Below, piece after piece: positions 7,119 to 27,700 of a stretch of 50,853 bases of DNA. A program made the translations under genes and the position numbers. The first letter of the stretch is position 1. Every line of letters starts with the position of its first letter. Origin of the DNA: Escherichia phage BEBK14. Below the pieces are notes generated by a model. The model had not been told where the DNA came from and did not search any database. It saw only the letters and a program-made list of their open reading frames with translations. The stretch lies in sequence record MN158214.1. The stretch is one strand, 5' to 3'.

Positions 7119-7149
7119 GCCTGCAAAACTGCTATTCTCAATGTTGTCA

Positions 7150-7166
7150 TTAGCAAAAAGTGCTAT
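7150..7166 (-). promoter_or_regulatory. 17-bp box copy (variant TTAGCA; no -10 partner)
   Basis: between terminator 7095..7118 and RBS/ATG of fibre gene; orientation opposite to flanking genes. Confidence 0.35.
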
Positions 7167-7183
7167 ACAGGAGAAAATTACAG

Positions 7184-9145
7184 ATGGCAATTTATCGCAA
7201 AGGTCAAGCGTCAATGGACGCTCAAGGCTATATAACTGGCTACGGGACGAACTGGCGTGAGCAGTTAACGCTGATCCGTTCCGGCGCAACCATTATTTTT
7301 CTGACTCAGCCGCTACAGGCCGCAGTTATCACCGAAGTGGTCAACGATACTAGCATTCGAGCAATCACCACTGGTGGTGCTGTTGTTCCCCGTTCAGACT
7401 ACATAATCTTGCTTCATGACTCGTTAACTGTTGATGGCCTGGCGCAAGACGTAGCGGAAACATTGCGCTACTACATGGGGAAAGAGTCGGAGCTTGCTGG
7501 ATTTATTGAGATCATCAAGGATTTTGATTGGGATAAGTTACAGAAGATCCAAGAAGACGTAAAGACAAATGCTGACGCAGCAGCAGCAAGCCAGCAGGCA
7601 GCTAAAACCAGCGAGAATAACGCGAAGACAAGCGCAACAAATGCAGCGAATAGCAAGAAAGGCGCTGATACTGCAAAGGCTGCCGCTGAATCCGCGCGCG
7701 ACGCTGCAAACACTGCAAAGACTGGCGCTGAAGCAGCAAAGTCTGGCGCTGAATCCGCGCGTGACGCTGCGAACACTGCAAAGGCAGGAGCTGAAAGTGC
7801 GCGAGATCAAGCGGAGGAATACGCAAAGCAGGCCGCAGAACCTTACAAGGACTTATTGCAACCGTTGCCGGACGTGTGGATACCATTTAATGATTCCCTG
7901 GATATGATTACCGGATTCTCGCCGTCATACAAAAAGATTGTCATAGGTGATGATGAGATCACGATGCCAGGTGACAAGATTGTTAAGTTTAAACGTGCAT
8001 CAACCGCTACTTACATTAACAAATCAGGTGTTTTTACAGTTGCAGCAATTGATGAACCACGTTTTGAAAGAGATGGATTGCTGATTGAAGGGCAGAGAAC
8101 AAACCATATGATTAATGCTTCAACTCCTGCTGGTTGGGGTCGCTCAGCTTCTGTGCAAGTGACAGCGAATACAGATTCATTTGGATTTCTTTATGGTCGC
8201 TTCGCTCCAGATCAGTCTACTGTTGGCAAAACAGATGCGCTAAACCTTGCATCTGTTATTTCTAATCACAGCCTTGATACATCTGGCAATGAAAAAAATG
8301 TTACTGCTTCATGCAGATTTAGATCAGATAAAGATGTTAGATTGAGGGTAAGATTTGCCGCTGGCGATGATATTGGTAGTATAGCATTCGCTGGAGATGC
8401 TTACATAAAACTTAAAGATCTTTCAGTTCAAAAAACTGGAGGTGCTGCAAACAGAATTAATGTTGAGGTTTACACTGATGATCTTGCTGGATGGAATATT
8501 GCAATTGTTACATTCCAGGCAATAAAAAATAAGGTAAACGCTCAGTTTCAAATATCTCCAGTCTCTGCTTATGCCGAAGGTGATTATCTTGAATTGTCAA
8601 CCCCTCAAGTTGAATTGGGATCTGGTGCTTCTTCTTATATTCAATCAGGTACGACACCAGCCACAAGGGCAAGCGATATGGTTACAGTGCCAATAAAAAA
8701 CAACCTTTACAATTTGCCGTTTACAGTTCTTGTGGAGGCTCATAAAAACTGGAGTAGAACGCCAAATGCTGCGCCTCGTGTTTTCGATACTGGAGGTCAT
8801 CAATCTGGTGCGGGAATTATTCTTGCTTTCGGGTCTGCCGAAGGCGATGCTGATGGATTCCCTTATTGCGATATAGGTAAATCAAACAGAAGGGTTAACG
8901 AGAATGCGAAACTAAAAAAGATGATCATAGGAATGAGAGTAAAGAGTGATTACAATACTTGTTGTGTAAGTAATGCCAGAATATCAAGCGAAACAAAAAC
9001 GGAATGGAGATATATAGTATCAACGGCTACTATAAGGATTGGCGGACAAACAAGTACAGGCGAACGCCATCTTTTCGGGCACGTTAGAAACTTCCGTATA
9101 TGGCACAAGGCGCTAACAGATCATCAATTGGGGGAAATTGTTTAA
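7184..9145 (+). CDS. tail fibre protein
   Basis: Ala/Lys-rich coiled-coil repeats (AESARDAANTAK x2) followed by large beta-rich C-terminal domain. Confidence 0.55.
   Translation: MAIYRKGQASMDAQGYITGYGTNWREQLTLIRSGATIIFLTQPLQAAVITEVVNDTSIRAITTGGAVVPRSDYIILLHDSLTVDGLAQDVAETLRYYMGKESELAGFIEIIKDFDWDKLQKIQEDVKTNADAAAASQQAAKTSENNAKTSATNAANSKKGADTAKAAAESARDAANTAKTGAEAAKSGAESARDAANTAKAGAESARDQAEEYAKQAAEPYKDLLQPLPDVWIPFNDSLDMITGFSPSYKKIVIGDDEITMPGDKIVKFKRASTATYINKSGVFTVAAIDEPRFERDGLLIEGQRTNHMINASTPAGWGRSASVQVTANTDSFGFLYGRFAPDQSTVGKTDALNLASVISNHSLDTSGNEKNVTASCRFRSDKDVRLRVRFAAGDDIGSIAFAGDAYIKLKDLSVQKTGGAANRINVEVYTDDLAGWNIAIVTFQAIKNKVNAQFQISPVSAYAEGDYLELSTPQVELGSGASSYIQSGTTPATRASDMVTVPIKNNLYNLPFTVLVEAHKNWSRTPNAAPRVFDTGGHQSGAGIILAFGSAEGDADGFPYCDIGKSNRRVNENAKLKKMIIGMRVKSDYNTCCVSNARISSETKTEWRYIVSTATIRIGGQTSTGERHLFGHVRNFRIWHKALTDHQLGEIV
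7685..7783. repeat. 63-bp period direct repeat inside tail-fibre gene
   Basis: GCTGAATCCGCGCG(C/T)GACGCTGC(A/G)AACACTGCAAAG at 7685..7720 and 7748..7783. Confidence 0.7.
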
Positions 9146-9423
9146 TGCGTGATTTAACATTAAAATTTGCAGACAAGGCCGATTTTTCGGCCTTTTTAGG
9201 AAAAATTAATTGGGATGATAACGAATCCATTCAGGATGCAATCCTGCTCGATGTAATCGGCAATACTTACACAGTAATTGCACGATCTGACGATGGCGAT
9301 GAGATTGCGCGAAAGAACGACGGCTATTTCGTCAATGTGCGAATCATTGATGATAAGTTTGATGCCGTAATTTTTAACGGCTACGTGGTTGAGTTAGATC
9401 AGCCGATTAGAGAATGGGCTTAA
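9145..9423 (+). CDS. hypothetical protein (fibre-associated?)
   Basis: ATG overlaps stop of fibre gene (TAATG). Confidence 0.4.
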   Translation: MRDLTLKFADKADFSAFLGKINWDDNESIQDAILLDVIGNTYTVIARSDDGDEIARKNDGYFVNVRIIDDKFDAVIFNGYVVELDQPIREWA

Positions 9424-9435
9424 GGAGTTAGGAAA

Positions 9436-10131
9436 ATGGCTACAGTAACTGTTATACCTACTGATATAACGAAGCTGAAAAATGATGTTTCTACGATAAA
9501 ACAGGATGTTTCGACACTAAAGCAGGATGTCGCCGGAAAAGCATCAACTACTGATGTTGACAATAAGTTGAAACCGTATCTAAAACAAACTGATCTATCA
9601 TCCGAGTTGAGTAGCGGAAGGTATAGTGGGAGTTTTTACCCCCTAACTGGTAACGATGCATTTTATTTATTTAATATTAACACAACCGCTCAATCAGCAA
9701 ACTTATGGCTTGATCCAAATGCTGGAGTGTCGCAAGTTTTACGCTCCACTTCCTCTTCTCGTTATAAGAGCAGCGTAGAATCGGTTATTGATGAATATGC
9801 GGATCTGATGCTTGAAATGCGTCCTGTGTGGTATCGGTCAACTTGTGAAAGCGACCGTAAAGATTGGGGATGGTACGGACTGATTGCAGAGGAAGTTGGA
9901 GAGGTTGCGCCGGAGTACGTTCACTGGCGACCGCTGCAAGAAGGAGAAGATCCTGCCATTGCTTCAAGTAATGGCATGGTGGCGGAAGGCGTTATGTATG
10001 ACCGCCTCACTGTTCCACTGATTCACCACGTCAAGAATCTGAAAGCGGAAAATGAGGAGATGAGAAAAGAAATTGACGAGCTAAAAGCGGTTGTAGCGGC
10101 ACTGGTAAACAAACCAACCACGTTAGACTAA
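9436..10131 (+). CDS. short fibre-like protein with C-terminal intramolecular chaperone (peptidase S74-like) domain
   Basis: N-terminal heptad repeats; C-terminal segment (GLIAEEVGEVAPEYV...MYDRLTVPLIHHVKNLKAENEEM) resembling endosialidase-chaperone domains. Confidence 0.5.
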   Translation: MATVTVIPTDITKLKNDVSTIKQDVSTLKQDVAGKASTTDVDNKLKPYLKQTDLSSELSSGRYSGSFYPLTGNDAFYLFNINTTAQSANLWLDPNAGVSQVLRSTSSSRYKSSVESVIDEYADLMLEMRPVWYRSTCESDRKDWGWYGLIAEEVGEVAPEYVHWRPLQEGEDPAIASSNGMVAEGVMYDRLTVPLIHHVKNLKAENEEMRKEIDELKAVVAALVNKPTTLD

Positions 10132-10137
10132 AAAAAT

Positions 10138-10159
10138 GCCCCGCATATGCGGGGCTTTT
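10138..10159. terminator. bidirectional rho-independent terminator
   Basis: GCCCCGCATATGCGGGGC flanked by A-run and T-run, between convergent genes. Confidence 0.65.
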
Positions 10160-10163
10160 GTTA

Positions 10164-10610
10164 TCAGAATGGAATGTCGTCGTCAAAATTCATTGGCGGC
10201 TGATTGCTTTTCTGTGGTTGCTGGCGAGGATGCTGCTGTTGCGGTTGCCCCCATCCACCTTGATTCTGCTGTTGCTGCTGTCCTTCGGTGCGCTGGCTGA
10301 ATACCAGTCGTGGTTGTTCCATCTGCAACGTTACGTAGTTGTTACCGTTATGCTCGCGCTGGTTGATGCGTAGAACTTCCGCAGAGATGGAAACGACTTT
10401 ACCAACCTGCAACGCGTTATCATACCACTGACGCATTGCATCGCTTGATGCGAAGAACGTTGCGCTATAGTTTGAATATATCCGTTCACCACTCTGTTTG
10501 TCTTTAATAGACTCCGACAATTCCACAATATACATCTTGTAAGCGCCGGAGTTGCTTTGTCCTTCTTTTGTGTATGGCTCTTTTCGGATCGTTCCTGTGA
10601 CTACGTGCAT
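10164..10610 (-). CDS. ssb: single-stranded DNA-binding protein
   Basis: OB-fold-like N-terminus, Gln/Gly-rich linker and acidic C-terminal tail DDDIPF; AGGAG RBS before ATG at 10610. Confidence 0.75.
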   Translation of the reverse strand: MHVVTGTIRKEPYTKEGQSNSGAYKMYIVELSESIKDKQSGERIYSNYSATFFASSDAMRQWYDNALQVGKVVSISAEVLRINQREHNGNNYVTLQMEQPRLVFSQRTEGQQQQQNQGGWGQPQQQHPRQQPQKSNQPPMNFDDDIPF

Positions 10611-10631
10611 TTTGTTTTCTCCTATGAAAAT

Positions 10632-10647
10632 GGGGCGCAAGCGCCCC
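10632..10647 (-). terminator. hairpin, terminator candidate between Erf and SSB
   Basis: GGGGCGCAAGCGCCCC followed by T-rich tract on minus strand. Confidence 0.45.
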
Positions 10648-10651
10648 GTTT

Positions 10652-11305
10652 TTATTCAAAATCGGTGATGTTAGCCGATTGTACTTGCTCAGGTTTTGCG
10701 GTGTCAACGGAATCACTTGCCAGATTCTTTTTCGGTTGCGCTGGATTAAAACCGCGAGCGCCGCAGATTTCGATTTCTGCTTTTCGTTTCTCGTAGTGTT
10801 CCTTAACGACCTGTTTACTTGCTGGATCGCTTGCGCTCCATGCTTTCTTGAATGTTTCCTGCAATTCAGGCACTGACTCGCATTTATCAAGATCACGTTT
10901 CCAGTCGTTTGCAGACTTAACAGCGATTTGCGCATCATCGTCAGCCTGGCTTAAACCGAACGCTGCCGCCGCAGAATAGCGCCTACCGTATGTAAAAGCA
11001 GATCCTACACCTTGCGGATCATTCTTCACGATTGGGATGTCAAAGAAATATTTCACCCACTGACCTGATGTGTGCATTACTGTTGTTTCGACTCGCAGCG
11101 TGTTATTTTCGATGCGGCTGCCGTCCTGCATTAGCATTAGGTCGTTATCCATCAACGCTGGAGTTATTGCATCAAGTACAGCGTCAAGTGTGGCGTAACG
11201 GTTTTTCAGATGGCTGTTTTGTCGGTCTTTTTTAACCTTCACAAACATTGAACGCGCTTTGTGTAGCGCCGGAAGTACAAGATCGAATTTCTCTGATAGC
11301 TGCAT
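10652..11305 (-). CDS. erf: Erf-family single-strand annealing protein
   Basis: resemblance to Erf recombinases ([12 protein letters not shown]...); adjacent to SSB and exonuclease. Confidence 0.6.
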
Positions 11306-11381
11306 AATTAACCCCTTATTTGTTAACCTGCGCGGCGAATTATAACACCGCGCTAATCATTTGTTTAGCTATTTGTGCGGT

Positions 11382-12443
11382 TTAAATCAGATACTGCTTG
11401 AACTGTCGGCGCACAAATTCAGGCGTATCCAAGCAAACTTCCGGCTCACCGTTTGCATACGCAGGCCATACGTCATGATGCTGGCACATAGCAAACTGTT
11501 GGATCACGCTAACATACTGGACTCGGCCTATCTTCAATTGCTCGCTGTTCATGCGGAAAGCCAACGGCAAATAAGGCTCTTTCTTCTCCTGGGCTAACAG
11601 GCGCATAACTACAGGGCGCTTCTCGTCTGGATATGCCTTCCTGAATAAATCATGTTGCAGCGCCATTTTCAGATAATAGCCGTGGTTGTAAGCCAGTCGC
11701 ATAAACTCCATCGGATTTGCGCTCATTGTGGTTTTGTAGTCAGTTATAACAACCGCTTCTGGATAGATAATATCGCGGCAAATTGGCTGACCTTTTTCGT
11801 CATAACCATCAATTAGCGTGGCGGTGACGTTTTTCACTACGTCAACGTGATCACATCGAACTTTAACTTTTACGCCGTTGATTTCGCCGAATAACGACAA
11901 TTCACGCTGTGCCGTCGGGCTGTTCATGCAGGCGTTATGTTCCGGTATGGATTCCAGAACCTGGCGCATTGCCACGCAAGCATCGTAATCTTTCGCGTCG
12001 ATTAACTGTACGCCGTCGGCTCTGGCCTGGCTTTCTGCGATCATGTCGATTAACCACATGATGTTAAGGTCTTCGCCACAATCAACCATCATTTTGATAA
12101 GGTCGGGGTAAGCCTTTCCGCTTGTCCCTTTCAGGCCAAAAGATTTCAGCTTTGCAGCCAATGCCGTTTGGCTTGTGATCAACTCTTTGAAGTCTTCCGG
12201 CGCTGGCGCACGGCGGTAAGTTTTATCAAATAGCTCCTTGCTTTCGAAGTTGGTATGCGACTGCGTACCGAAAACGAGCGCCTTGCTCTTATCGTCGCGC
12301 GGCTTGAACTTCCACGCAGCAGGGCAAGTGCTGTAAATCTCTGCCAGACTTGAACCGCTAACATATTCAGCCGTCCATGCTTCTGGATCGTGATAAAGCT
12401 CGTTGCTCATTTCTGCGCTGGTGTAAGCCATAAATTTATTCAT
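11382..12443 (-). CDS. putative recombination exonuclease
   Basis: 353-aa ORF in recombination module next to Erf; GAGGG RBS; family assignment is inferred from context. Confidence 0.4.
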   Translation of the reverse strand: MNKFMAYTSAEMSNELYHDPEAWTAEYVSGSSLAEIYSTCPAAWKFKPRDDKSKALVFGTQSHTNFESKELFDKTYRRAPAPEDFKELITSQTALAAKLKSFGLKGTSGKAYPDLIKMMVDCGEDLNIMWLIDMIAESQARADGVQLIDAKDYDACVAMRQVLESIPEHNACMNSPTAQRELSLFGEINGVKVKVRCDHVDVVKNVTATLIDGYDEKGQPICRDIIYPEAVVITDYKTTMSANPMEFMRLAYNHGYYLKMALQHDLFRKAYPDEKRPVVMRLLAQEKKEPYLPLAFRMNSEQLKIGRVQYVSVIQQFAMCQHHDVWPAYANGEPEVCLDTPEFVRRQFKQYLI

Positions 12444-12560
12444 GATTAGCCCTCATTGGTTGGTATGCCTGCATTTTAGCTATTTGATGCGTTTAGTCAA
12501 TAGGTGATTTGTTTTTTCTGTTTTCTAAACGCTTCTTTTGGGCTTAAGAACAAAATCTGA

Positions 12561-12790
12561 TTATAAGTGATTGAATATCAGGTTGTTATTTTTCTGTTCT
12601 CGCGTTCGCGTATCTGCTCAGCTTTATACATACATATGCAATACACAGTGAGCATCTGTAATTACATAAATCAATACACTCACCAAACATGCTACACACC
12701 ACAACCCAATGAAACACAGAGAACAAATAAAAACAAATATAGATACATAGATAAATAAACTCTTTATTTTTTATGTATATAGATGATTTT
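12561..12790. other. AT-rich divergent control region A with GTTCGCG repeats and poly-purine/AT block
   Basis: no ORFs; TTATAAGTG...GTTATTTT...GTTCTCGCGTTCGCG and ATACATAGATAAATAAACTCTTTATTTT blocks homologous to 43022..43350. Confidence 0.55.
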
Positions 12791-12880
12791 ACTGTCTATT
12801 GTTTGTCCAATTTGTGTTTAAGTTTTGCGCTAAAATTAAGGAGGTGTGAATTTGATAACAAGCGAGAACAGAAAAAACAA

Positions 12881-12897
12881 ATAGCACTTTTTGCTAA
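12881..12897 (+). promoter_or_regulatory. 17-bp box copy (variant TTGCTAA)
   Basis: TATAGT at 12918..12923, 20 bp downstream; precedes lipoprotein gene. Confidence 0.5.
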
Positions 12898-12954
12898 ACT
12901 CGATGTTCAAGATCTTGTATAGTTGGAAACAACAACAACTAAGGAGATACAAAG

Positions 12955-13224
12955 ATGAAAAAATTAATCGCAGTTATCGCCACCGTAGCCGCTCTGACCG
13001 GATGCGCAGCGTCGCCTACTGGCAGCTTCAAAAAGATCGATTGCACGGCAAAATTTAACGTTAAAACATTCCCTGTTAACGGATTCCATGAAGTCAAAAT
13101 TAATGCAGTACGCGAAAACAGATTCAGCCAAAAGCAATACAGGTTGAGCGTTGACAATAAAGAAGTTAAATTTATCAACCGCTGGCAAAATGAAAGTAAA
13201 TTTATTGATTTGAGGTGTAATTAA
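12955..13224 (+). CDS. lipoprotein, possible Cor-like superinfection exclusion protein
   Basis: signal peptide + lipobox LTGC; 89 aa; sits beside tail-fibre/J region as cor does in T1-like phages. Confidence 0.45.
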   Translation: MKKLIAVIATVAALTGCAASPTGSFKKIDCTAKFNVKTFPVNGFHEVKINAVRENRFSQKQYRLSVDNKEVKFINRWQNESKFIDLRCN

Positions 13225-13502
13225 TGGCGCAATATGGTTATGCAATATATGACGATCGAGGAAGGGAAGTTACAGGACTTTTAACGCCTGTTTTCTTTCT
13301 TGATAAATTCACTCAGCCATCAGGTAGCAAGACTTACCAAAACAGGCCGCCAGGTAAATCATTGAAAGCAATATATGTTGGCATGAATTCCTGGCGTGGT
13401 GGCGACCCTGGCGCACCAAACTTATCGGTAAGTGGCGACACCGTTACATGGAGTGGGCTTTCTGGATCTGATTCAAGATATATATATACTTTTTGGGGGT
13501 GA
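13224..13502 (+). CDS. hypothetical protein
   Basis: ORF translationally coupled to neighbours (ATGG/TGATG overlaps). Confidence 0.4.
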   Translation: MAQYGYAIYDDRGREVTGLLTPVFFLDKFTQPSGSKTYQNRPPGKSLKAIYVGMNSWRGGDPGAPNLSVSGDTVTWSGLSGSDSRYIYTFWG

Positions 13503-14119
13503 TGATGTACGGGATGAGCATAAAAAAATCAGACGGATCATTATGGTTAAGCCCAGATTTCACTCCGGTTAATCTAATTGATCGGGCAGTTATATCTGCT
13601 AATACCGGAACAGTTTTTACTTCGTCAATTCCTATTGATAGGGTGTGTTTTTTCTTTGTTAGATTGACTGCTAAATCATACATATCATTTACGCAATTTA
13701 ACAATGGAGGAAGACACGCAATAAGACTTGATAGATCTGATAATCAGGGGGATGTTATTGTTTATGCTTTTAGCAACATGGTTACGCCTCCTGGTAGTCA
13801 CGGGATAGCATTTTATAATGCTAGTGGTGAAATGGTTTATCATGGAAAAATGAGGCCTTTGGATGCAAAACTTGTATCTGTAAGCGGGATCGCGTTTGAT
13901 GTTAATTTGGGATACCCTTGCGCCATAATGCCATCACTGACAGCGTTAAACTCTGTTCCTAATCCGGCTTTAGGTGGATTCATGATATTTGAATCTCAGG
14001 CTGCTGCGTATGGCAACGGTGTATATTCTTTCTCTAGGCAAGTTGCACAAACTCCTGGCCCAGTTGGTATTTACACCGCTTCATCTGTTTTGGTTATAAA
14101 TACATCACACTATGATTAA
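13502..14119 (+). CDS. hypothetical protein (AT-rich, N-terminus paralogous to 13224..13502)
   Basis: ATG overlaps upstream TGA; ends at bidirectional terminator. Confidence 0.4.
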   Translation: MMYGMSIKKSDGSLWLSPDFTPVNLIDRAVISANTGTVFTSSIPIDRVCFFFVRLTAKSYISFTQFNNGGRHAIRLDRSDNQGDVIVYAFSNMVTPPGSHGIAFYNASGEMVYHGKMRPLDAKLVSVSGIAFDVNLGYPCAIMPSLTALNSVPNPALGGFMIFESQAAAYGNGVYSFSRQVAQTPGPVGIYTASSVLVINTSHYD

Positions 14120-14126
14120 AATTAAA

Positions 14127-14147
14127 GGGGGCTATGCCCCCTTTTTT
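14127..14147. terminator. bidirectional rho-independent terminator
   Basis: GGGGGCTATGCCCCC + T6, between convergent genes; overlaps J stop. Confidence 0.65.
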
Positions 14148-17100
14148 ACCAGCTTCCGGTAATCCTTCCGACTTCAACCCTCAATACTCCGTTTGCATCT
14201 TTTACCTTCAATCCCTCATTGGTGAATTTAGTAGCTCCTTCTCCTGGCGTTGATCCGTAATTCTCAAAGATTCCGTTTTTATCAAGCCTCCATCCTTGCT
14301 GGTTTTGAACAAAGTTGTTTGACTGAATAACATTACCAATCATCGCATTAGTGATTGATCCGTTCTTCACCAAAAGACTATTAATGAAAACCTGATTATT
14401 CTCAACCACGAAAGGCAAAGTGAAAGTCCCTCCAGTAGAGCTAGTCATAATGGCGAACCTGTTCGCATCAAACAAAACTTGCGAGATAAGACCGGATGAA
14501 CCCTGAGAAAGCTGCATTACCATGCCTGCGCTGTACTTCTGCCCCTTGTAAGTAAGACCCAATTTCATAGCGTACTTAGCGCCAACCGAATCAACGTTAG
14601 CCCACGAATCCAACTTTTCAACCAATGCAGATTCAACGTCGCCAAATCGTGCTGTTAATGCCTGATCGGCTTGTACTCGCGCCTCCTCTTCATTGGCGAT
14701 AGCTTGCCTTACTTCCGAAATGCTGGCCTCAACGTCAACCTTGATTGCATCATTGAGATCATTAATCTCTTTAGTAAATTTTGCATCAAGCTGTTGTACC
14801 GCTTGCGCTCGCGCTTCTGACTCGTTAGTGATTGTCTGCCTTACATCGCTAATGCTTGCAGAAGTATCCTTGCGCACACCGTCGATTTCTTTTGTGAATT
14901 TAGAATCAAGCTGCTGAATTTGAGTTGCTCGCGTCTCTGATTCAGTGGCGATTGCCTCCTGCACTGTCTTAATGCTTGATGTTATCTCGCCATCAATTGA
15001 AGCCCTCAATTCTTCGATTTGAGTTACTCGCGCCTCAGTCTCATTTGCGATCAACTGAACAGCATGACCATATTCAGCCTTTCGCTTTCCGTTCTGTACT
15101 CGCGTCCATTTCAAGTTAGCGTCAATCGCCAAAGCGTTCTGGATTATTGCCTGCGCCTGGTCTTTGATCTTGTTCGCGCTTTCGATGGCGTTCTCCTTGA
15201 TTTCTTGCCCTGCTTCGCTATCAAAAATCTTATCAAGAATATCTCCTAAAACAGATTCAACATCATCTGATGCCATGCCACGAACAAAATCAGTCCAGCT
15301 AGAAACGTTGCCGATTCTGTCAACGCTGCGGATTCTATACCAGACAACCTGACCCGCTGGTAGTGTACTGTGCCAGTATTCATATTGCGGGTATGGGATC
15401 AGCGTTAACAGGCTTGAGTTTTCAACCGTTCCGTCTGGCGACTGGTGAAGCTCAATGTAGGCCGTGTCTCCGCTTCCTTCTGGCATACCCCATTTAATAC
15501 GAATGCCGAAAACTTCATTATCTGATGCGGTTAAGTTAACTGGCGCGCCTGGCTCACCAACTTTACCAGTCAGGGATGCTGTTGCAATCTTCGACCATGC
15601 TGACGTACTGCCGGAAGCTGAAACAGATCTGACCCTTACTTGATAGTTCCCTGAATAAATCCCTTCTACTTCCGTCTCTTTGTTCGCTGTGCGCGGCGTA
15701 TTTAGCCAGTTGCCATCACCTTTTCGCCATTGCATTTCATACAGTGACGCATAAGGCACTTTATCCCACGACACAACCATCGTCTCAACGCTAACACCCT
15801 GGACAACACGGGAATATGACGACACCTGAACATTTTCCGGGGCTTGCATGATGTCCGGCTGCACGATTGAGATAGGACGATCATCAATGTTTACGCCATA
15901 ATCAATTTCGTCGTATTTGTTAGGATCGTATTCAACCGCCGTAATCGAGTAGGTAAATTCTTCCTCAGTGTCACCCTTGCTGATTCCTGTTACAACGTAC
16001 TGTTGCAACGCAAGGTCTGTTCGGTCGATTGCAAATACGGTGTCCGGTTTTACGTCGAATCCGAACCCTACGTTTAACTCAATGGTTTTTCCGTCCGCGC
16101 TGACTTTTGAGATTGTGCGCTTAACTGGTTTTCCGTCCGGTCTGTTGATGATAATGAAATCACCTGGTCTAGCGTCAATCTTAAACGGAACGAATACCTG
16201 CAATCCGGAAACTTCCATTACGCGACCTGATAGGTTGAGCGTTAAGTTGCTGCTCAGGAAGTTATCAGAAATCGCGATAACGTCACCGATAGATGGGATC
16301 ATCCCTTCCAGCCCGGTAGCAAAGTTTACCGTTTGGCTGCGCAGGTTGGTTTTCAGTATCCAGCGTCCGCGTCGATTCGCTTCGCTTCGACGGGTACAAC
16401 CAATCGCCGTGATACTTGTTGGATTGTAGCCAAAACGTAACGCCGCCTCAGTGTCAAATACGCCCTCAACGTCCTGTTGATACATGTTTTGCTCATCGTC
16501 AAACGTAACGTTGCATTGAGTGTACATGCTCTTTTCGCTGGCGCTCGTGTACTGAAAATCTCCATTAATTACGTTGTCGTTTGTAAAGATGTATGATGGC
16601 TCGCGCGGTTTATCCACCACTACAGACAAGCTCTCGCCATTCCAAAAAGTCATTCCTCGGAAGATTGAGCAAATGTCACGAATAAGCTGATAAGCCTCAA
16701 TCTGGCTTTGAATCACCATATCGCATAGGTAGCGCGGCTCTGTTCCTCCCTTGCCATCTGGAACCATCTGATCACAATACACCCCAGCCTCGTATAGACT
16801 CCACTTGTCGATCTGTATTCCCAATTCTCGTTGATCAAGTCCATAACGCTGATTAGTAACCAAATCGTAAAGAACCCATGCCGGATTATTTGACCACGCT
16901 TTTTTAAATGTTCCGTCCCATGTTCCAGAATACCGACGAGATACAGGATCGTAATTGCTGGGAACCTGAATCAACTTCCATTTCTTTTTAATTGAAATGT
17001 TAGGGATCTGGTTAGGGAACAGTTCGCTGTCAAACTCGACGTAAACAAGCCCAGTCAGTGGGTAACGGAATTTTGCATCAATTACCTCGGCGTAACTCTG

Positions 17101-17724
17101 AATGCGGATCAGATCTGTTACCTTAGACGTTGTGCTGTCAGGTGTAACACGGCGAACGCGAAGCAAAACACGCTCATTGAATTTCGGCAAGTCAATGCGT
17201 CGGCTACGGTCGTATCCGGTGCGCGTCTTGCCGTTAATGGTGTCGGTCATTACTTCTTTGTATGAATCACCATCAACCGCCATATCAACTGCATATGTAA
17301 CGGTAACGCCCACCAGGTCGCCGTTATCCTCCTGCTTAATACCCACTGGCATTAGCATTTTGATGCGTATTGCGGAAAGCGTCTTATTCGTTACCGACAA
17401 AACATATGGCGTATTTGTAGTCAAATCTCGATTGATGATCACCTCGTTTGACGTGTCAGTAAAACCCTGAATGTATTCCTGATCCTGCGTTCCTGGCCTA
17501 AACTCTGCTTTAACGCCTGGATAGTTTACAGTTCCATCGTCAGCGATAACCGGAACATCATCAAGATACAGATCACGTAATGAGAAATCCGCGTCACACT
17601 CACCATCGGATACGGCAAGCAGGATTTTAATTTTGTTTATTGAAATCAGGTTATCTTCAAGGTCTTTAGGCACGTAAGGTTTTTTCGACCCACCCTTACT
17701 GCCAGTTATAATATTTTTAGCCAT
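14146..17724 (-). CDS. central tail fibre / host specificity protein (lambda J-like)
   Basis: 1192 aa; N-terminus GSKGGSKKPYVPKDLEDNL resembles lambda gpJ start; C-terminal coiled-coil repeats. Confidence 0.8.
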   Translation of the reverse strand: MAKNIITGSKGGSKKPYVPKDLEDNLISINKIKILLAVSDGECDADFSLRDLYLDDVPVIADDGTVNYPGVKAEFRPGTQDQEYIQGFTDTSNEVIINRDLTTNTPYVLSVTNKTLSAIRIKMLMPVGIKQEDNGDLVGVTVTYAVDMAVDGDSYKEVMTDTINGKTRTGYDRSRRIDLPKFNERVLLRVRRVTPDSTTSKVTDLIRIQSYAEVIDAKFRYPLTGLVYVEFDSELFPNQIPNISIKKKWKLIQVPSNYDPVSRRYSGTWDGTFKKAWSNNPAWVLYDLVTNQRYGLDQRELGIQIDKWSLYEAGVYCDQMVPDGKGGTEPRYLCDMVIQSQIEAYQLIRDICSIFRGMTFWNGESLSVVVDKPREPSYIFTNDNVINGDFQYTSASEKSMYTQCNVTFDDEQNMYQQDVEGVFDTEAALRFGYNPTSITAIGCTRRSEANRRGRWILKTNLRSQTVNFATGLEGMIPSIGDVIAISDNFLSSNLTLNLSGRVMEVSGLQVFVPFKIDARPGDFIIINRPDGKPVKRTISKVSADGKTIELNVGFGFDVKPDTVFAIDRTDLALQQYVVTGISKGDTEEEFTYSITAVEYDPNKYDEIDYGVNIDDRPISIVQPDIMQAPENVQVSSYSRVVQGVSVETMVVSWDKVPYASLYEMQWRKGDGNWLNTPRTANKETEVEGIYSGNYQVRVRSVSASGSTSAWSKIATASLTGKVGEPGAPVNLTASDNEVFGIRIKWGMPEGSGDTAYIELHQSPDGTVENSSLLTLIPYPQYEYWHSTLPAGQVVWYRIRSVDRIGNVSSWTDFVRGMASDDVESVLGDILDKIFDSEAGQEIKENAIESANKIKDQAQAIIQNALAIDANLKWTRVQNGKRKAEYGHAVQLIANETEARVTQIEELRASIDGEITSSIKTVQEAIATESETRATQIQQLDSKFTKEIDGVRKDTSASISDVRQTITNESEARAQAVQQLDAKFTKEINDLNDAIKVDVEASISEVRQAIANEEEARVQADQALTARFGDVESALVEKLDSWANVDSVGAKYAMKLGLTYKGQKYSAGMVMQLSQGSSGLISQVLFDANRFAIMTSSTGGTFTLPFVVENNQVFINSLLVKNGSITNAMIGNVIQSNNFVQNQQGWRLDKNGIFENYGSTPGEGATKFTNEGLKVKDANGVLRVEVGRITGSW
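14690..15060. repeat. imperfect ~114-bp period repeats encoding C-terminal coiled coil of J-like protein
   Basis: repeated ESEARxQAxQQLDxKFTKEI segments in translation; repetitive shadow ORFs on opposite strand. Confidence 0.5.
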
Positions 17725-17779
17725 GTTTTTTTTACCTTTTGTGCTATTTGCGTGTTTACATTATACGGACGAAAAAAAA

Positions 17780-17797
17780 GCCGCGCAACGCGCGACT
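17780..17797. terminator. hairpin, terminator/attenuator candidate between I-like and J-like genes
   Basis: GC-rich inverted repeat flanked by A8 and T5. Confidence 0.4.
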
Positions 17798-17805
17798 CTT
17801 TTTGT

Positions 17806-19875: not shown

Positions 19876-19916
19876 AATAAGTCCTCCTGTTTGCTGCATT
19901 GTAACACCAATAAAAA

Positions 19917-19936
19917 GGCCGCACAAAAGCGGCCTG
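19917..19936 (-). terminator. hairpin, attenuator candidate between M-like and L-like genes
   Basis: AGGCCGC...GCGGCCT with flanking A/T runs. Confidence 0.4.
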
Positions 19937-19940
19937 TGTT

Positions 19941-20291
19941 TTATCCCATTGATGTAAATTGCTCCGTGAAAGTAGCTTTGACTTCCTGAACGGTTGCAGA
20001 AATCGGAGTTGCGCCAACGCTGCCTCCCTGCACCCTGAATAACCCCAATTGACCGTCCGGCATTTCCCAAACAAACGGTTTTAATCTGTGATTATGCAGA
20101 AAGTTCAGCACCTCCCTGTAATCACGTCCGGCGTACACGATGGTAAACTCTCGCCGCACCGTGTTAAATCCGCCGGATGCTACTTGCGTGTATCCGTTAC
20201 CAAAAACGACCTCCCTGTCGTTGTTGGATGTGGTCATTGCTCCGCCGCCTCCTTGCGTTTGCGTGCACCATTTGAATCTTTCCAGCTTCAT
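19941..20291 (-). CDS. minor tail protein (lambda M-like)
   Basis: 116 aa, immediately downstream of tape measure. Confidence 0.6.
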   Translation of the reverse strand: MKLERFKWCTQTQGGGGAMTTSNNDREVVFGNGYTQVASGGFNTVRREFTIVYAGRDYREVLNFLHNHRLKPFVWEMPDGQLGLFRVQGGSVGATPISATVQEVKATFTEQFTSMG

Positions 20292-20293
20292 GA

Positions 20294-23218: not shown

Positions 23219-23240
23219 TTCATTTACTCCAGGTATTAAA

Positions 23241-23258
23241 AAAGCGCCCGTAGGCGCT
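23241..23258 (-). terminator. hairpin terminator candidate
   Basis: AAGCGCCCGTAGGCGCTT with A-run on plus (T-run on minus). Confidence 0.45.
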
Positions 23259-23265
23259 TTGATTG

Positions 23266-23457
23266 CTATTTTTGGTGCATCATTTCTAATGCTTTTTGTT
23301 CCATGATTCGCAAATCGTTTAAGGCCATTTCTTCATCTTCTATTTTATAGATTCTGAACAACATCGGCAAAACATTATAGTCAAATCCGTAAGCACCAGA
23401 TCCGGCGCTTCTCCACTGCGTTTGCATTGCACAAAAAACATCCCATGACTGCATCAT
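23266..23457 (-). CDS. tail assembly chaperone T-segment (likely expressed by -1 frameshift from G)
   Basis: frame is open upstream into the end of 23577..23891 in the -1 frame. Confidence 0.4.
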   Translation of the reverse strand: MMQSWDVFCAMQTQWRSAGSGAYGFDYNVLPMLFRIYKIEDEEMALNDLRIMEQKALEMMHQK

Positions 23458-23576
23458 GCTTTCATCGAAAATAACCTCCGGCGGCTCCTCGCCTTCGTAG
23501 TCGGCGCGTGTTAATCCGACCGCTTCAAGCTCTGCGTCTGTCGGTGGCTTCTGGTAAAACAGGTAAACCGCGCGCC

Positions 23577-23891
23577 TTAACCCTTTACGCGCTGACCAGC
23601 CAGAGCGCCTAAGTAGGATTGAACGAGCGCCAACGCTGACCCAGGGTAATAATCGACTAACAGTTTTGCGTTTTCGTGGTTAAATTCTTCTTCAAGATCC
23701 CAACCCGTCGCAATGTTCATGATAAAGTCGGAATCTTTGATCCCCTCTTTCCGGTAAAGCTCCTGGACTTCCGTCGCTTTCTTGTGCTTCACGGTGAAAA
23801 TGATTTTCTGTTCGCTCCCGTCAGGCATAACGAAGTTTACTGGTAGCTTGAAGTCCGGCAGTGGGCCAAGTGTTAATTTCATCTTTGCCAT
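23577..23891 (-). CDS. tail assembly chaperone (lambda G-like)
   Basis: 104 aa between major tail and tape measure genes; AAGGAG RBS. Confidence 0.5.
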   Translation of the reverse strand: MAKMKLTLGPLPDFKLPVNFVMPDGSEQKIIFTVKHKKATEVQELYRKEGIKDSDFIMNIATGWDLEEEFNHENAKLLVDYYPGSALALVQSYLGALAGQRVKG

Positions 23892-23907
23892 TTTAATTTC
23901 TCCTTAA

Positions 23908-23924
23908 ATAGCATTTTTTGTTAA
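23908..23924 (+). promoter_or_regulatory. 17-bp box copy
   Basis: between major-tail terminator and G-like gene RBS; TAGATT 22 bp away on plus strand (antisense to late genes). Confidence 0.35.
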
Positions 23925-23967
23925 AAGTCTGAATGACTTGTTTGATAGATTCTACAGGAACGAAAAA

Positions 23968-23984
23968 AGGGGCGCAATGCCCCT
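23968..23984 (-). terminator. rho-independent terminator candidate after major tail gene
   Basis: AGGGGCGCAATGCCCCT preceded by A6 on plus. Confidence 0.55.
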
Positions 23985-23989
23985 TGTAA

Positions 23990-24652
23990 TTACTGAACAT
24001 CGGAAGGAAGGAAGGTGAATCGACCTTTCAGAGAAACGGAAAGGGAAACTGTTTCCATTTCGTTGACGGTCGTCTGCGGGATCTCGTTAAACGAAAGAAC
24101 ACCAGCCCAGCAACGCATTTCTTTCGCCTTTGGAACGAACATTCGCAACGCCGTAACCTCACCTCCTTCATCAGCTTTTCGAAGCAATGGATAAATTGGA
24201 TTATCGAACTCATGCGCGAAAGTGTAGGTAAGAGATACCGCGCTTTTATATGTTGGTAGCTGCTGCTCCTGGTCGTCAGATAAACACTGATAAGTGTAAT
24301 ATTGCTGTTCGCCGCCGTCCTGTGACAGATCCTGAACGCATGGAATTTCAACCCATGAATTGATTTTCGCAAACGATGCAGTACCACCGGAAGGGAAGAT
24401 ATTCTGATCTGTAGTATCAATACCCTCAAGCGTTACGCTAGTTTCTTCGCCATTCTGCTTGACGCGAAGAACGCGATCAACCATCTTACCCCATGAGGAA
24501 GTAGTGATAATTACATAATCACCTTTCTTAAACTCAGTGCCGCCTGATGCAACTGTAAATACAGGATCTGCTGCGTTAGAAATAGCCGTTGCTTGCACAT
24601 CAGTAGCTCGATTGCTTTCAATAAAAATTTGAGAACCGTTAGGAAGGTGCAT
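23990..24652 (-). CDS. major tail protein
   Basis: 220 aa, position upstream of G/T chaperones; terminator hairpin follows. Confidence 0.65.
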   Translation of the reverse strand: MHLPNGSQIFIESNRATDVQATAISNAADPVFTVASGGTEFKKGDYVIITTSSWGKMVDRVLRVKQNGEETSVTLEGIDTTDQNIFPSGGTASFAKINSWVEIPCVQDLSQDGGEQQYYTYQCLSDDQEQQLPTYKSAVSLTYTFAHEFDNPIYPLLRKADEGGEVTALRMFVPKAKEMRCWAGVLSFNEIPQTTVNEMETVSLSVSLKGRFTFLPSDVQ

Positions 24653-24658
24653 AGTAAA

Positions 24659-25057
24659 TTACTCCTTTGTTTCAATTCGAACATAGAACCTGATCGGAAT
24701 CAACCAACCAGTTTCACTTTTTTGTAGCTTATGGACTTTCGCCCCTTCGCTAATATAGCCAGTTTCTAAGATTTTACCATCATAGAAAAAACTGGCAATC
24801 TCTTTAGCAAGTTTTCTACCTTTGTCAGATCCAGCACCTGGAGGAATAATAACGCCAATCTGAACCATCCCAATATAAGAAACACATCTACGGTCAATTG
24901 AGAAAAACTCCTTGTCAACTTCTGTATAATCGAACCGCAACCACATAGAACCATCGGCAGGCGGTACAAACTCGACGTTTTCATAAGCGATTTTAAATCT
25001 GCTTTCAAATTCACCAGTAAGCGCCTTGCGCGCTGCCAACATCAATTCATAGTCCAT
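24659..25057 (-). CDS. tail terminator / tail completion protein
   Basis: position between neck genes and major tail gene. Confidence 0.45.
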   Translation of the reverse strand: MDYELMLAARKALTGEFESRFKIAYENVEFVPPADGSMWLRFDYTEVDKEFFSIDRRCVSYIGMVQIGVIIPPGAGSDKGRKLAKEIASFFYDGKILETGYISEGAKVHKLQKSETGWLIPIRFYVRIETKE

Positions 25058-25487
25058 TTTTTTTCCTCGACTCTTTGATTGCTTCTGCTATATACGTTCT
25101 TAACTTCGCTGCAACAATTCCCAGCACACCCGCTGGCGCTTGCTTTGAATGCCCGTACTCTAGGGCGTTAGCATAAATCAACATATTGGAAAAATAAATC
25201 GACCTTACCGCGCCGCCGCCACGCATGATGGCAAAGATTGCCCGCTTGCCTTCCGCAATAGTCTTATCTCCGTGCTTATCATATTGATTCAGTGCGTACA
25301 GTGGCGGGGAATTTGCTGTCACCTGCCAGTTTCCCCGATAGCGCCCCGTATCAACTGGCGAGCGTCTTACCAGATCTGTGTGTACCTTAACGGCGAACAA
25401 TTCTATGCAATCCTCAAGACCATCATTTACGGCGTTAATCCAGCGGTCAATGTCGCCGTGAAATTCCTTGATCTTGTAGTTAGCCAT
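25047..25487 (-). CDS. neck protein, HK97 gp10-like
   Basis: YANALEYG-type motif; start set at MANYKIKEF after AGGAGGG RBS. Confidence 0.5.
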   Translation of the reverse strand: MANYKIKEFHGDIDRWINAVNDGLEDCIELFAVKVHTDLVRRSPVDTGRYRGNWQVTANSPPLYALNQYDKHGDKTIAEGKRAIFAIMRGGGAVRSIYFSNMLIYANALEYGHSKQAPAGVLGIVAAKLRTYIAEAIKESRKKNGL

Positions 25488-25860
25488 GTACCGCAACCCT
25501 CCTAAGTATTGGCCTGTAGGCGACCGTGATGTTTGTCTGTCTGACTGGTCGCGCTTCAACTACTATATAACGCTCACCATCAACATCAATGTGATACCCG
25601 TTCTTAATTTCTACGGAATTAGTGAAAACTCCCAGCTTGTCGGTTACGCGGATTGTTTCGCCGTCCACCTCACGCGTTCGAGGCGACCGGATCAGACCTT
25701 TAATCATTACGCTTACTTCCGGCTTCTCTACCTCCTCGCCTCCCACAATATCTACGCTACCCTGTTGCGTGATACACTTAAACTCACCAGCGCCATCGCT
25801 GAAAAAGTTAATTCCAGCCGTAGCCAATCGTGCGATCTCATTGTAGTTCATCGGCAACAC
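25480..25860 (-). CDS. head-tail joining protein
   Basis: position and size in neck module. Confidence 0.45.
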
Positions 25861-26330
25861 CTCCGGCGCAATCCAGTTACCAGGCCAAATCCGCCACCAT
25901 GCTTACGGTTTAGCGCCTCGTACATTTTTCCCCACGGTGTCTGGCGGATCATCTTTCCGCTTGCGTCATTGGTCACGCGGTCAAACGTCTGACTAAATTC
26001 TCCAGTCAGGGAAAACGACGCAATACGGCGTGAGTAACTCTCCACGCTCTCACCTTCCTGTTTCATAGCTCCGTCCAACGTCATAAGGTGCAAGGTGTAA
26101 AGAGCAACCGCTTTAGGGTATGAGTTTTTAAACCGCTTTTTGCAAACAAACTCTTTAGCAAGCTCAATCCATGCCACAATTAAATCGGGATCAACTTGTT
26201 GCATTGGCGGCGCTAACTTCACGATTTGCTGCATGATTTCAGCGTCTGTGTAAAATTCATCTACCATTTTGTTTTCTCCAGATGTGACAAGGGGCGCATA
26301 AGCGCCCCAATTATTAATATTCGCCGCCAT
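25848..26330 (-). CDS. head-tail connector / head completion protein
   Basis: position after capsid module. Confidence 0.45.
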
Positions 26331-26589
26331 CCTCTAGCTCTTTGCGGCTCTTACCCTCGGTAGGATCTTTTTTGCGCTTCTTCTCCGCTTTCTCCTTGAT
26401 TTGCTCGTTAATTTCTGAATTGTCTTTAACTTCCACATCTCCGCGAGCGATCAGGTATTCAATTGCGGAATCATTAATGCGATCAGATTCAATTTCAATT
26501 TCATCACCAGGATGATAACGCTTACCATCCATAATAATCATGCAAACGCCAGTTACTTTAAGTTTTAAATTTTTGCTCATTTTGCGCAC
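26314..26589 (-). CDS. hypothetical protein
   Basis: 91-aa ORF between capsid and connector genes. Confidence 0.4.
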
Positions 26590-26635
26590 TCCATAAATAA
26601 AAAGGGGAACCCTTAAGGCTCCCCATGTTATCTAA

Positions 26636-27610
26636 TTACACAGCCTTTTTCAAGCCAGTAATTAGAACCATCGTAAACGGACGGTAAATTGTAAGGCCAG
26701 TGCACTTTGAAGTACAAGGAACTTTAAAATGCAGATCTTTCGGCTGTGCAGGCAGCATATTGAATGCCTCCGGGATCTCAATACTCATGTTCATTGGATC
26801 TTTTTCGTAAACCAGGCAGCCTTTAGTGCCTTTGCCGTCAATATCCTCAAGCTCTGCAATGGAGTCGATGGTGATACCGTCGTTTTGCTTCTGGAAGTAT
26901 TCCAAATAGCTTTCAGTGGTATTTTCCATTCGAACCGTAAGGACTTTACGCATAGACGGCGGAATCAGGATGTTGGTCGCGCGATGCTGACCTTTGGTTA
27001 CTTCCTCGATCGTTTCGATTGCAGTCTCCAGTTCATCGCTTGCAACTTTTGGAAACTTGGTGTTTCCGTCGTTACTCAGCCATCCTTTTGACGTGATTTT
27101 AGTCAGGTTTGGATGATCGAAAACGGAAACGATCTTATGAGGCTTGGAACCTTTGAAAACCAGGAAGTTAATAAGCTGATCATGTGCATTCTGCGCTGCG
27201 TTAGCCTTGCGAGTAGAAAGGCTTTTGCCAGTTCGCTGACCTGCTTTGATTTCGTCAATTGAGATCAGGAAAGCGTTACCCATGCGGAACACTTTGCCAA
27301 ACTCAGAAGTCATAAGAGCGTCAACGGTCGGCAGGTCGTCGGTGTAGTCTGCAATAATTTTCGCGTAACCAACTTTATCAAAAGTCTGATACTCGAAAGT
27401 TTTGTCGGTGTCGCTCAGTTCATTGGTGACAGGGAAGACGCGAAGCGCAGAACCCGCTGGGTACTCTTTTTCGTAAGCAGTGGATCGGATTTTGTGTAAC
27501 TCCTGCGCAGTCCAAATACCCATGTCGGAAGCGTCACCCTTGATACCTTGCAATTGCAGGTGATTAGACACAATGGAAGCGTCTAGCTCATCATATTTTT
27601 TCTTTGTCAT
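26636..27610 (-). CDS. major capsid protein
   Basis: 324 aa; start MTKKKYDELD after AGGAG RBS; preceded by hairpin and box copy. Confidence 0.7.
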   Translation of the reverse strand: MTKKKYDELDASIVSNHLQLQGIKGDASDMGIWTAQELHKIRSTAYEKEYPAGSALRVFPVTNELSDTDKTFEYQTFDKVGYAKIIADYTDDLPTVDALMTSEFGKVFRMGNAFLISIDEIKAGQRTGKSLSTRKANAAQNAHDQLINFLVFKGSKPHKIVSVFDHPNLTKITSKGWLSNDGNTKFPKVASDELETAIETIEEVTKGQHRATNILIPPSMRKVLTVRMENTTESYLEYFQKQNDGITIDSIAELEDIDGKGTKGCLVYEKDPMNMSIEIPEAFNMLPAQPKDLHFKVPCTSKCTGLTIYRPFTMVLITGLKKAV

Positions 27611-27629
27611 GATTTTTCTCCTATAAAAA

Positions 27630-27652
27630 AGGCTGTTAACAAGTAACAGCCT
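27630..27652 (-). terminator. hairpin + T-run between box copy and capsid RBS
   Basis: AGGCTGTTAAC...GTTAACAGCCT with A-run on plus. Confidence 0.45.
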
Positions 27653-27656
27653 CATG

Positions 27657-27673
27657 ATAGCACTTTTTGTTAA
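27657..27673 (+). promoter_or_regulatory. 17-bp box copy
   Basis: upstream of capsid-gene hairpin/RBS; TATTCA 22 bp away on plus strand. Confidence 0.35.
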
Positions 27674-27700
27674 AGGTGCAAATCTATTTTGTGGTATTCA

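Follow-up and report, generated by a model that had tools for sequence, protein, structure and literature searches.

We analysed the 50,853-nt sequence of Escherichia phage BEBK14 (record MN158214.1; "the window" denotes this whole stretch) for a short box that recurs between its genes and that, at three places in the late region, points against the genes on both sides. The phage is T1-like and belongs to the Drexlerviridae: for a 6-kb query from the late region the identity was 99.9% to Escherichia phage BabyEgg and 70–85% to many Drexlerviridae. The BabyEgg annotation was transferred in reverse (window coordinate approximately 42981 minus BabyEgg coordinate). A first-pass annotation of the window had listed copies at 7150, 23908 and 27657 as opposed to their flanking genes, and the 17-mers are found exactly there:

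6143-7054, plus strand: primase (BabyEgg annotation), upstream neighbour of the 7150 copy
7150..7166, plus strand: reversed box, 17-mer TTAGCAAAAAGTGCTAT; as the 19-mer ATAGCACTTTTTGCTAATG (7148..7166) it reads minus among plus-strand genes, has perfect TAGCA/TGCTA arms and ends 3 nt before the Shine-Dalgarno sequence
7184-9145, plus strand: tail fibre, ATG at 7184, downstream neighbour of the 7150 copy
23577-23891, minus strand: tail-assembly chaperone (Pfam Phage_TAC_4), ATG 23891..23889, downstream of the 23908 copy
23908..23924, minus strand: reversed box, 17-mer TTAACAAAAAATGCTAT; as the 19-mer ATAGCATTTTTTGTTAAAA (23908..23926) it reads plus among minus-strand genes, lies in the sense 5' leader and ends 4 nt before the Shine-Dalgarno sequence
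23990-24652, minus strand: major tail protein, upstream neighbour of the 23908 copy
26639-27610, minus strand: major capsid protein, ATG at 27610, downstream of the 27657 copy
27657..27673, minus strand: reversed box, 17-mer TTAACAAAAAGTGCTAT; as the 19-mer ATAGCACTTTTTGTTAAAG (27657..27675) it reads plus among minus-strand genes and supplies the spacer, the TG and the first three -10 bases of the capsid promoter
27701-28483, minus strand: cement/decoration-like protein (Pfam Phage_cement), upstream of the 27657 copy

The box matches in sequence the 21-nt T1/TLS repeat aaATAGCACnnnTTGnTAAAA, a published element. The re-annotation of phage TLS that appeared in 2024 described 18 intergenic copies, said to be co-directional with transcription and to lie about 76 nt upstream of start codons, stated that T1, Rtp and Rogue1 carry similar repeats, suggested an analogy to UP elements and listed the function of the repeat among the open questions for T1-like phages (PMC11447400). 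Window box and TLS/T1 repeat share their sequence, the T and G sub-types and the intergenic placement; a literature search with the exact box sequence found nothing relevant. With a tolerance of 3 mismatches, the window contains 16 occurrences of the 17-mer where 0.28 are expected, and none of 100 shuffles reaches 16; a relaxed scan with the 19-mer ATAGCACnnnTTGnTAAAA gave 19 convincing copies. Fourteen of these read ATAGCAC..TTGYTAAAA toward the downstream gene, the three introduced above oppose both flanking genes, and two further late-region copies (17729-17747 and 32334-32352), overlooked in the first-pass annotation, are co-oriented with their genes.

By sequence the three reversed copies belong to the repeat: of the 16 positions that the 19-mer specifies, 1–2 are mismatched in them. 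They break its published placement: whereas the TLS paper describes co-directional copies at about 76 nt, the three conserved reversed copies stand at sense late promoters, 16, 18 and 46 nt from the ATG. T1 and the TLS repeat DR7 likewise depart from the rule. Table S1 of the TLS paper places DR7 on the negative strand (15044..15024), beside a positive-strand terminator (PMC11447400); DR7 is the reversed copy upstream of the TLS capsid gene (locus L023) and the counterpart of the window copy at 27657, as DR8 is of the tail-tip copy at 17729. A reversed copy is thus recorded in the TLS table, yet without comment by its authors, and it is the published description that is too narrow, rather than the reversed copies that are non-members.

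The 14 copies that read toward their downstream gene, here called early-type, place the box 22 bp upstream of a -10 hexamer in a promoter without a -35 element:

2024..2042 and 3063-3081, minus strand: two early-type boxes, -10 at 21–23 bp
5580-5598, minus strand: one early-type box, at the regulator/helicase junction
12881-12899, plus strand: one early-type box
36836-36854, 38177-38195, 39608-39626, 40786-40804 and 42249-42267, minus strand: five early-type boxes
43644-43662, 44728-44746, 46652-46670, 47329-47347 and 49496-49514, plus strand: five early-type boxes

When aligned, the window copies follow a common order: an upstream stop codon that often abuts the box or lies inside it, the box, some 19 bp in which a GC-rich hairpin is frequent, a -10-like hexamer (TATAAT, CATAAT, TATTAT, TATAGT and similar), an A/C-rich leader, a ribosome-binding site (RBS) and the ATG. 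The leader sometimes contains CATCGAAAC, a motif that shows no enrichment at 3 mismatches (45 occurrences, 34 expected). We sampled 80 unique copies, drawn from the window, from T1 and Klebsiella phage NJS1, and from five metagenomic contigs: (T/C)AnnnT follows TTGYTA at 21–23 bp in 71 and at exactly 22 bp in 58, and none of the early-type copies carries a -35 hexamer at the normal distance. TTGYTA as an ordinary -35 was rejected, as its 22-bp spacer is beyond the range of sigma70.

The information content of the box is about 2 bits at A3, G4, C5, A6, G13 and A16–A18 and peaks at TAGCA and TGYTA. In the copy alignment G4, C5 and G13 are at 100% and C7 at 87%, and the base at position 14 is either C or T. 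With its centre at position 9, the core TAGCA-N5-TG(C/T)TA forms an inverted repeat, a near-palindrome with 5-bp arms; its dyad is perfect where position 14 is C (30 of 71) and has one mismatch otherwise. The flanks are asymmetric, and it is the flank A17–A19/C20 alone that gives the box its "direction". If transcription starts 7 nt after the -10, the dyad centre would lie at about -42, and by established promoter biology such a geometry would suit an activator that binds over the -35 region. That position, about -42, is also the one used by class II activators and by lambda cI at PRM. Two other known elements were considered and rejected. UP elements are AT-rich tracts at about -59 to -38 without invariant G/C positions; the box has such positions, spans about -50 to -32 and is too near the -10. 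The MotA box TGCTT of T4 middle promoters is centred at -30, 11–13 bp from the -10, and TTGYTAAAA ends 19 bp from it.

At several early-type promoters, among them those of the copies at 2024-2042, 36836-36854, 43644-43662, 46652-46670 and 49496-49514, the T-rich tail of the GC-rich hairpin is the -10 region itself (for example GCCCGGCattttGTCGGGCATAATTATTT), so that the terminator of the upstream gene is nested in the promoter of the next. Stop codons overlap or abut the box at 46652-46655, 47329-47332 and 44725-44728, TAA directly precedes several other copies, and the TAG within ATAGCAC terminates the open reading frames (ORFs) 45882..46655 and 47111..47332.

The first-pass annotation missed that all three reversed boxes lie at conserved promoters in the sense direction, which on their motifs we class as sigma70-type (capsid TTGCAC-16-TGcTATCAT, tail fibre TGcTATTCT, chaperone TTGCGC-17-TAGAAT):

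7130..7138, plus strand: predicted sense extended -10 of the tail-fibre gene, TGcTATTCT, after the primase terminator (stem 7094-7110 and T run)
23946..23951, plus strand: antisense -10 TAGATT, 22 bp downstream of the box TTGTTA
23949..23977, minus strand: predicted sense chaperone/tape-measure promoter, TTGCGC 23977..23972, 17-nt spacer, TAGAAT 23954..23949
23985..23967, minus strand: major-tail terminator, whose loop and 3' stem hold the sense -35 TTGCGC
27623..27653, minus strand: hairpin and T run that separate the capsid promoter from the RBS AGGAGA (27622..27617), kept in relatives
27654..27681, minus strand: predicted sense major capsid promoter, TTGCAC 27681..27676, 16-nt spacer, TG 27662..27661, TATCAT 27659..27654

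At the capsid gene the sense order is an A-rich stretch, TTGCAC, 16 nt that are the box, gTGcTATCAT, a hairpin with T run and the RBS. The first-pass order of terminator, box and RBS does not apply here: no terminator stands upstream of the box, and the hairpin (27653..27629) lies between box and RBS. A consensus scan calls the sense promoter, including its TG, at 27682..27654 and calls no antisense promoter using this box. We retrieved 78 viral contigs through the capsid protein (54–96% identity); most of them, and nearly all those closer than about 57% identity, carry the reversed box 65–80 nt before the capsid ATG, and Vibrio phage Vc1 retains it as well. Among 67 unique relatives the sense promoter has TTGnnn in 67, TG in 67 and TAnnnT in 64, the other three being shifted by one base, whereas an antisense TAnnnT at 21–23 bp occurs in just two. 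The first-pass hexamer TATTCA does stand exactly 22 bp from TTGTTA in the window; it lacks the critical T at -7. The reversed box itself contributes TAT to a sense hexamer, which has T at -7 in 64 of the 67 capsid copies, in none of the chaperone and tail-fibre copies, which precede a Shine-Dalgarno sequence, and in only about 17% of early-type copies. This contrast fits the view that the capsid copy alone serves as a forward -10, and the idea that the reversed box is an extended -10 promoter at all copies was rejected. RNA polymerase does not read spacer bases specifically; the conservation of the box across genera within a promoter spacer argues that something besides RNA polymerase reads them.

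The capsid start would fall within the 5' stem of the hairpin, so that transcripts arriving from upstream may terminate while those initiated at the promoter would pass. The portal promoter (32290-32330, minus strand) and the capsid promoter (27623-27659, minus strand) both have a terminator-like hairpin right after the -10, kept in relatives; the portal start, too, would lie inside a 5' arm, stopping read-in transcripts and letting locally started ones through.

At the chaperone gene, TTGCnn-N17-TAnAAT (TA(G/A/C)AAT) is present in the sense direction in 18 of 18 true unique relatives, although the stems of the terminator vary, and the box follows 22–26 nt downstream of the sense -10, right before the Shine-Dalgarno sequence. 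The same 18 relatives, T1 included, all carry an antisense TAnnnT exactly 22 bp from TTGYTA, with no enrichment at any other offset. Its inner bases vary (TAGATT, TAAGAT, TATCAT, TAGCAT, TAGAGT, TATATT, TAGGAT, TAGGCT, TACAGT, TACGAT), and a fixed TAnnnT with free inner bases is the pattern that selection for a -10 element leaves in sequence. This antisense element has the early-type geometry and faces the rear of the major-tail terminator and, beyond it, the major tail gene. Since the two -10s abut or overlap, they would form a divergent promoter pair with starts about 13–16 bp apart, whose polymerase footprints must, on this layout, exclude each other. On its reverse side the terminator lacks a T run, and no conserved ORF lies behind the backward promoter among relatives; a 59-residue antisense ORF (24015-24194) was rejected, being closed or absent in several of them. 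If the backward promoter fires, the product would be an antisense RNA that encodes no protein and covers the 3' end of the major tail gene; the competition for polymerase may be of more consequence than the making of this RNA. BabyEgg CDS0042 (23893-24000, minus strand), annotated as a 35-residue "hypothetical protein", spans the major-tail terminator, both -10s and the box, and is probably not a gene.

At the tail-fibre gene, searches of viral contigs with the primase and the regulator yielded 12 and 5 loci, so that the comparison covers six lineages. They share the order terminator, extended -10 (TGCTATTAT, TGCTATTCT or TGCTAGAAT), 11–12 nt, reversed box and Shine-Dalgarno sequence. The extended -10 is present in all six; the box is kept in four and decayed or deleted in two, which retain the promoter. 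An antisense -10 at 21–23 bp is found in none of the six, T1 included (the window hexamer is TTTTGC). The box would lie at about +3 to +21 of the predicted start, a classic operator position. A -35-like TTGTCA at 7140-7149 (plus strand) directly precedes the box, with CTGTCA or TTGACA in relatives (L086, L093-L096); at 14 bp from the TAT of the box it is too close for a sigma70 promoter.

The reversal is shared by T1, TLS and dozens of related contigs. T1 keeps all three places, with reversed copies at 15068 (capsid), 18832 (chaperone) and 34902 (tail fibre), and most of the closer group of capsid contigs have the reversed copy after the major tail gene. In the Klebsiella Webervirus genomes (loci L040-L080 and L098) the early-type boxes are unchanged and all three reversed late copies are lost or degraded; at Webervirus-like capsid loci the box has decayed (GCTTAACGATTCGTGATAT), TGaTATTCT is kept, and the promoter has the better -35 TTGACG.

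The remaining copies and the candidate box-binding protein lie at the following positions:

3484..5523, minus strand: helicase
5580..5598, minus strand: box of the early-type helicase promoter, reversed with respect to the regulator gene and 10 nt upstream of its ATG
5609..6085, plus strand: candidate regulator of 158 residues, homologue of T1 gp23, with a predicted Cro-fold helix-turn-helix
17729..17747, minus strand: co-oriented degenerate late box, the counterpart of TLS DR8, whose end is 5 nt short of the ATG of the gene for the large tail-tip protein (14146..17724)
32334..32352, minus strand: co-oriented late box of the portal gene, followed by 5 nt, TATAAT, a hairpin with T run and the RBS

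Some co-oriented late copies end only 3–15 nt before a start codon, that of the tail-tip gene or, in T1, of the small terminase gene (17729-17747 in the window; 8362 and 25021 in T1, L002); at that distance they cannot be upstream promoter elements for that gene. A degenerate box with 3 mismatches, AAAGCACAAATAGCTAAAG, lies at the end of the regulator gene (6069-6087, plus strand), followed by a terminator and the primase gene; its T1 equivalent is a better copy at 35977 with 2 mismatches.

Between helicase and regulator, the palindromic -10 GTGTATAATACAC (TATAAT 5555-5560 on the plus strand, TATTAT 5561..5556 on the minus strand) supplies a -10 to the regulator gene on the right and to the box-dependent helicase promoter on the left, a layout shared with T1 and NJS1; the divergent pair at the chaperone gene resembles this junction in its overlapping opposite-strand -10s. 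The regulator gene is preceded by a reversed box, an autoregulatory layout. The protein is the sole annotated regulator and the only recognisable candidate: no other DNA-binding domain was detected in the 30 other small early ORFs searched. Homologues were found in 848 phage records (52–100% identity). Pfam gave sub-threshold hits to YdaS and P22 Cro, and a profile search of the PDB matched Cro proteins (E = 0.003–0.008). The structural model is confident (pLDDT, the predicted local distance difference test, 86), and its helical core superposes on all-alpha Cro proteins, including operator-bound N15 Cro, with a target template-modelling score of 0.66–0.73 at Foldseek E values of only 0.02–0.3. 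An N-terminal arm, DKRTxNGNNGTRRGKDKKxRK (residues 14–34; 5609-5710), is invariant or nearly so in 36 diverse homologues and more conserved than the helix-turn-helix. The basic arm is modelled as disordered (pLDDT 53–65) and may contact DNA or polymerase. The predicted Cro-fold protein is a candidate binder.

With moderate confidence we interpret the box as an operator for a phage regulator, usable in either orientation, which would activate from about -42 and obstruct the late promoters. One phage-encoded dimeric regulator, with the Cro-fold protein at 5609-6085 as candidate, would bind all copies of the box and help RNA polymerase at promoters without a -35. The three reversed copies would then be the same site set on conserved forward promoters that each head a late unit, inside the core promoter at the capsid gene, just past the start at the tail-fibre gene and in the leader at the chaperone gene. 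At these late promoters the regulator would be a steric obstacle to polymerase or send it to the backward promoter instead, and transcription of structural genes would be delayed until the regulator is diluted or titrated. The promoter anatomy around the boxes is conserved; that a protein binds them, with what sign and at what time, we infer. The near-palindromic core at about -42, the overlap with three forward late promoters and the conserved divergent pair at the chaperone gene are new here. Read from the sequence, most of the "antisense" appearance is the asymmetric flank of a near-palindromic site.

Several observations weigh against this operator interpretation. The symmetry extends over no more than 5 bp in each arm and is imperfect in copies with T at position 14, and A17–A19 in the flank are conserved as strongly as the core. 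A simple scan sees neither the sense chaperone promoter, whose -35 matches 3 of 6 positions, nor the tail-fibre promoter, which has no -35, and the case for both comes from conservation alone. Late copies have been lost in Webervirus and some other lineages, so that any control they exert is dispensable. Vc1 has the same box and a regulator with a different recognition helix (CCVRLTNAY vs SQQTVNMW), which speaks against simple recognition by the helix-turn-helix of this protein and implies that other parts of it read the DNA or that the binder is something else; as the box is unchanged despite the change of helix, the covariation test gives the candidate no support, and the binder may be a host factor. 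The sequence cannot tell repression from activation at the late promoters, and the searched literature contained no binding, transcription-start or expression data for any T1-like phage; one candidate start-site/RNA-seq paper was set aside, as it concerned a T5-like phage.

Four other explanations were considered. The first-pass annotation had proposed backward promoters, and that all three reversed boxes are box-dependent promoters firing antisense RNAs across late genes is quite unlikely. The proposal holds at 23908, where TAGATT stands exactly 22 bp from TTGTTA and the complete early-type layout runs antisense in all 18 relatives, and where a transcript would enter the major tail gene past a terminator that has no T run on that side; even there no conserved antisense ORF follows. 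It fails at the capsid copy, with its rare antisense TAnnnT and a window hexamer deprived of the T at -7, and at the tail-fibre copy, which has no suitably spaced hexamer in any lineage. It is doubtful, too, that the box is read solely by host RNA polymerase, as a UP-like or displaced -35 element, and that the reversed copies are inert relics of inverted promoter modules. Such an element would agree with the AT-rich make-up of the box around a T tract and an A tract, with the TTGYTA it holds, with the UP-element analogy of the TLS authors (PMC11447400), with its identity in phages of different hosts even where the recognition helix differs and with the loss of late copies in some lineages. Against it stand the invariant or nearly invariant G4, C5, C7 and G13 in a span unlike that of UP elements, and the 22 bp from TTGYTA to the -10, outside the sigma70 range. 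The full box is moreover kept across genera in spacer and leader DNA, where polymerase needs no particular sequence, so that an element read purely by polymerase is insufficient.

The first-pass annotation had also offered an orientation-independent site for protein binding or RNA processing. The protein-binding half of this suggestion would fit all three copies best; we consider it very unlikely that the box acts as RNA, be it as a hairpin or processing site by terminators or through pairing of early forward RNA with late reversed leaders. In its favour, transcription would place the copies at 7150 and 23908 just ahead of the Shine-Dalgarno sequence, the restriction of position 14 to C or T keeps a G-C or G-U pair with G4 in the forward RNA, and forward and reversed RNAs are perfectly complementary over 17–19 nt. 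The fixed 22-bp distance to the -10 is nevertheless a constraint at the DNA level, early-type boxes lie upstream of the start they serve and the capsid copy lies outside its own transcript; the box hairpin is weak, at -1.3 to -3.8 kcal/mol, and the 23908 copy does not form one, and Rfam gave no match at gathering thresholds anywhere in the window. Hardly credible is the notion that the boxes are recombination or module-boundary sequences for gene shuffling between related phages, comparable to the promoter/stem-loop cassettes of T4-like phages, with no regulatory role of their own: they do lie at gene boundaries beside terminator hairpins, sometimes over the upstream stop codon, and are nearly identical across genera, but syntenic genomes retain the three late copies in place and orientation, the -10 stands at a set distance, and recombination of a reversed with a forward copy would flip essential segments.

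Several known systems share features with the box. Lambda cI (OR2/PRM, OR1/PR) and the C proteins of restriction-modification systems are small helix-turn-helix dimers on near-palindromic operators; they activate when centred beside or over the -35 region, at about -42, repress when the site overlaps the core promoter and have an operator before the regulator gene. The T1 box likewise occurs near -42, over a core promoter and before the regulator gene, and C proteins are among the weaker structural matches of the candidate. The systems differ in that T1-like phages are virulent, that about 19 dispersed single sites take the place of tandem cooperative operators, that binding is here an expectation, and that the candidate carries in addition an invariant N-terminal arm and a C-terminal domain. 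Warman et al. (2021) reportedly described bidirectional bacterial promoters with symmetric or abutting -10 elements. The opposite-strand -10s that overlap at 5555-5561 and 23946-23954, with divergent starts about 13–19 bp apart, resemble these; here, however, one arm needs a specific upstream box, and at 23908 that arm has no gene to express.

The TLS authors cite the stoperators of mycobacteriophage L5 (PMC11447400). These, too, are many dispersed short intergenic sites in early and late operons, some downstream of promoters, but they are asymmetric, one-orientation repressor sites of a temperate phage, whereas the T1 box mostly stands at a fixed distance upstream of a -10, the placement expected of an activator site. 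The PeSLs of T4-like phages are cassettes of promoter plus stem-loop (PMC4122927) and share with the present modules (box, hairpin, -10) the composite of promoter and terminator repeated at gene boundaries; PeSLs have ordinary -35/-10 early promoters, while here the -35 is missing and the hairpin lies between box and -10.

Apart from the boxes, the small early ORF 44752-45000 (plus strand) matches Pfam PF25180, "Phage antiviral trigger protein Gp54" (E = 5e-38).

A wider form of the operator interpretation, in which one operator and one Cro-fold regulator make up the whole early-to-late timer of T1-like phages, we regard as unlikely. The regulator would be made first, from a host-type promoter, and would then switch on about 14 promoters without a -35 from about -42 while shutting its own promoter and the constitutive capsid, tail-chaperone and tail-fibre promoters, the chaperone unit by diverting polymerase to the backward promoter; replication would multiply the approximately 19 operators per genome and titrate the regulator. 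T1-like phages have, to our knowledge, no polymerase or sigma factor of their own. If the timer exists, late promoters would be released without a late sigma factor or activator.

The analysis corrects the published statement that all copies of the repeat run the same way as transcription, and the geometry of the box provides a rule for annotators placing promoters in T1-like genomes. T1 is a classic coliphage, and Drexlerviridae are common in therapy collections. The present analysis turns the question that the TLS authors raised about the repeat into specific experiments.

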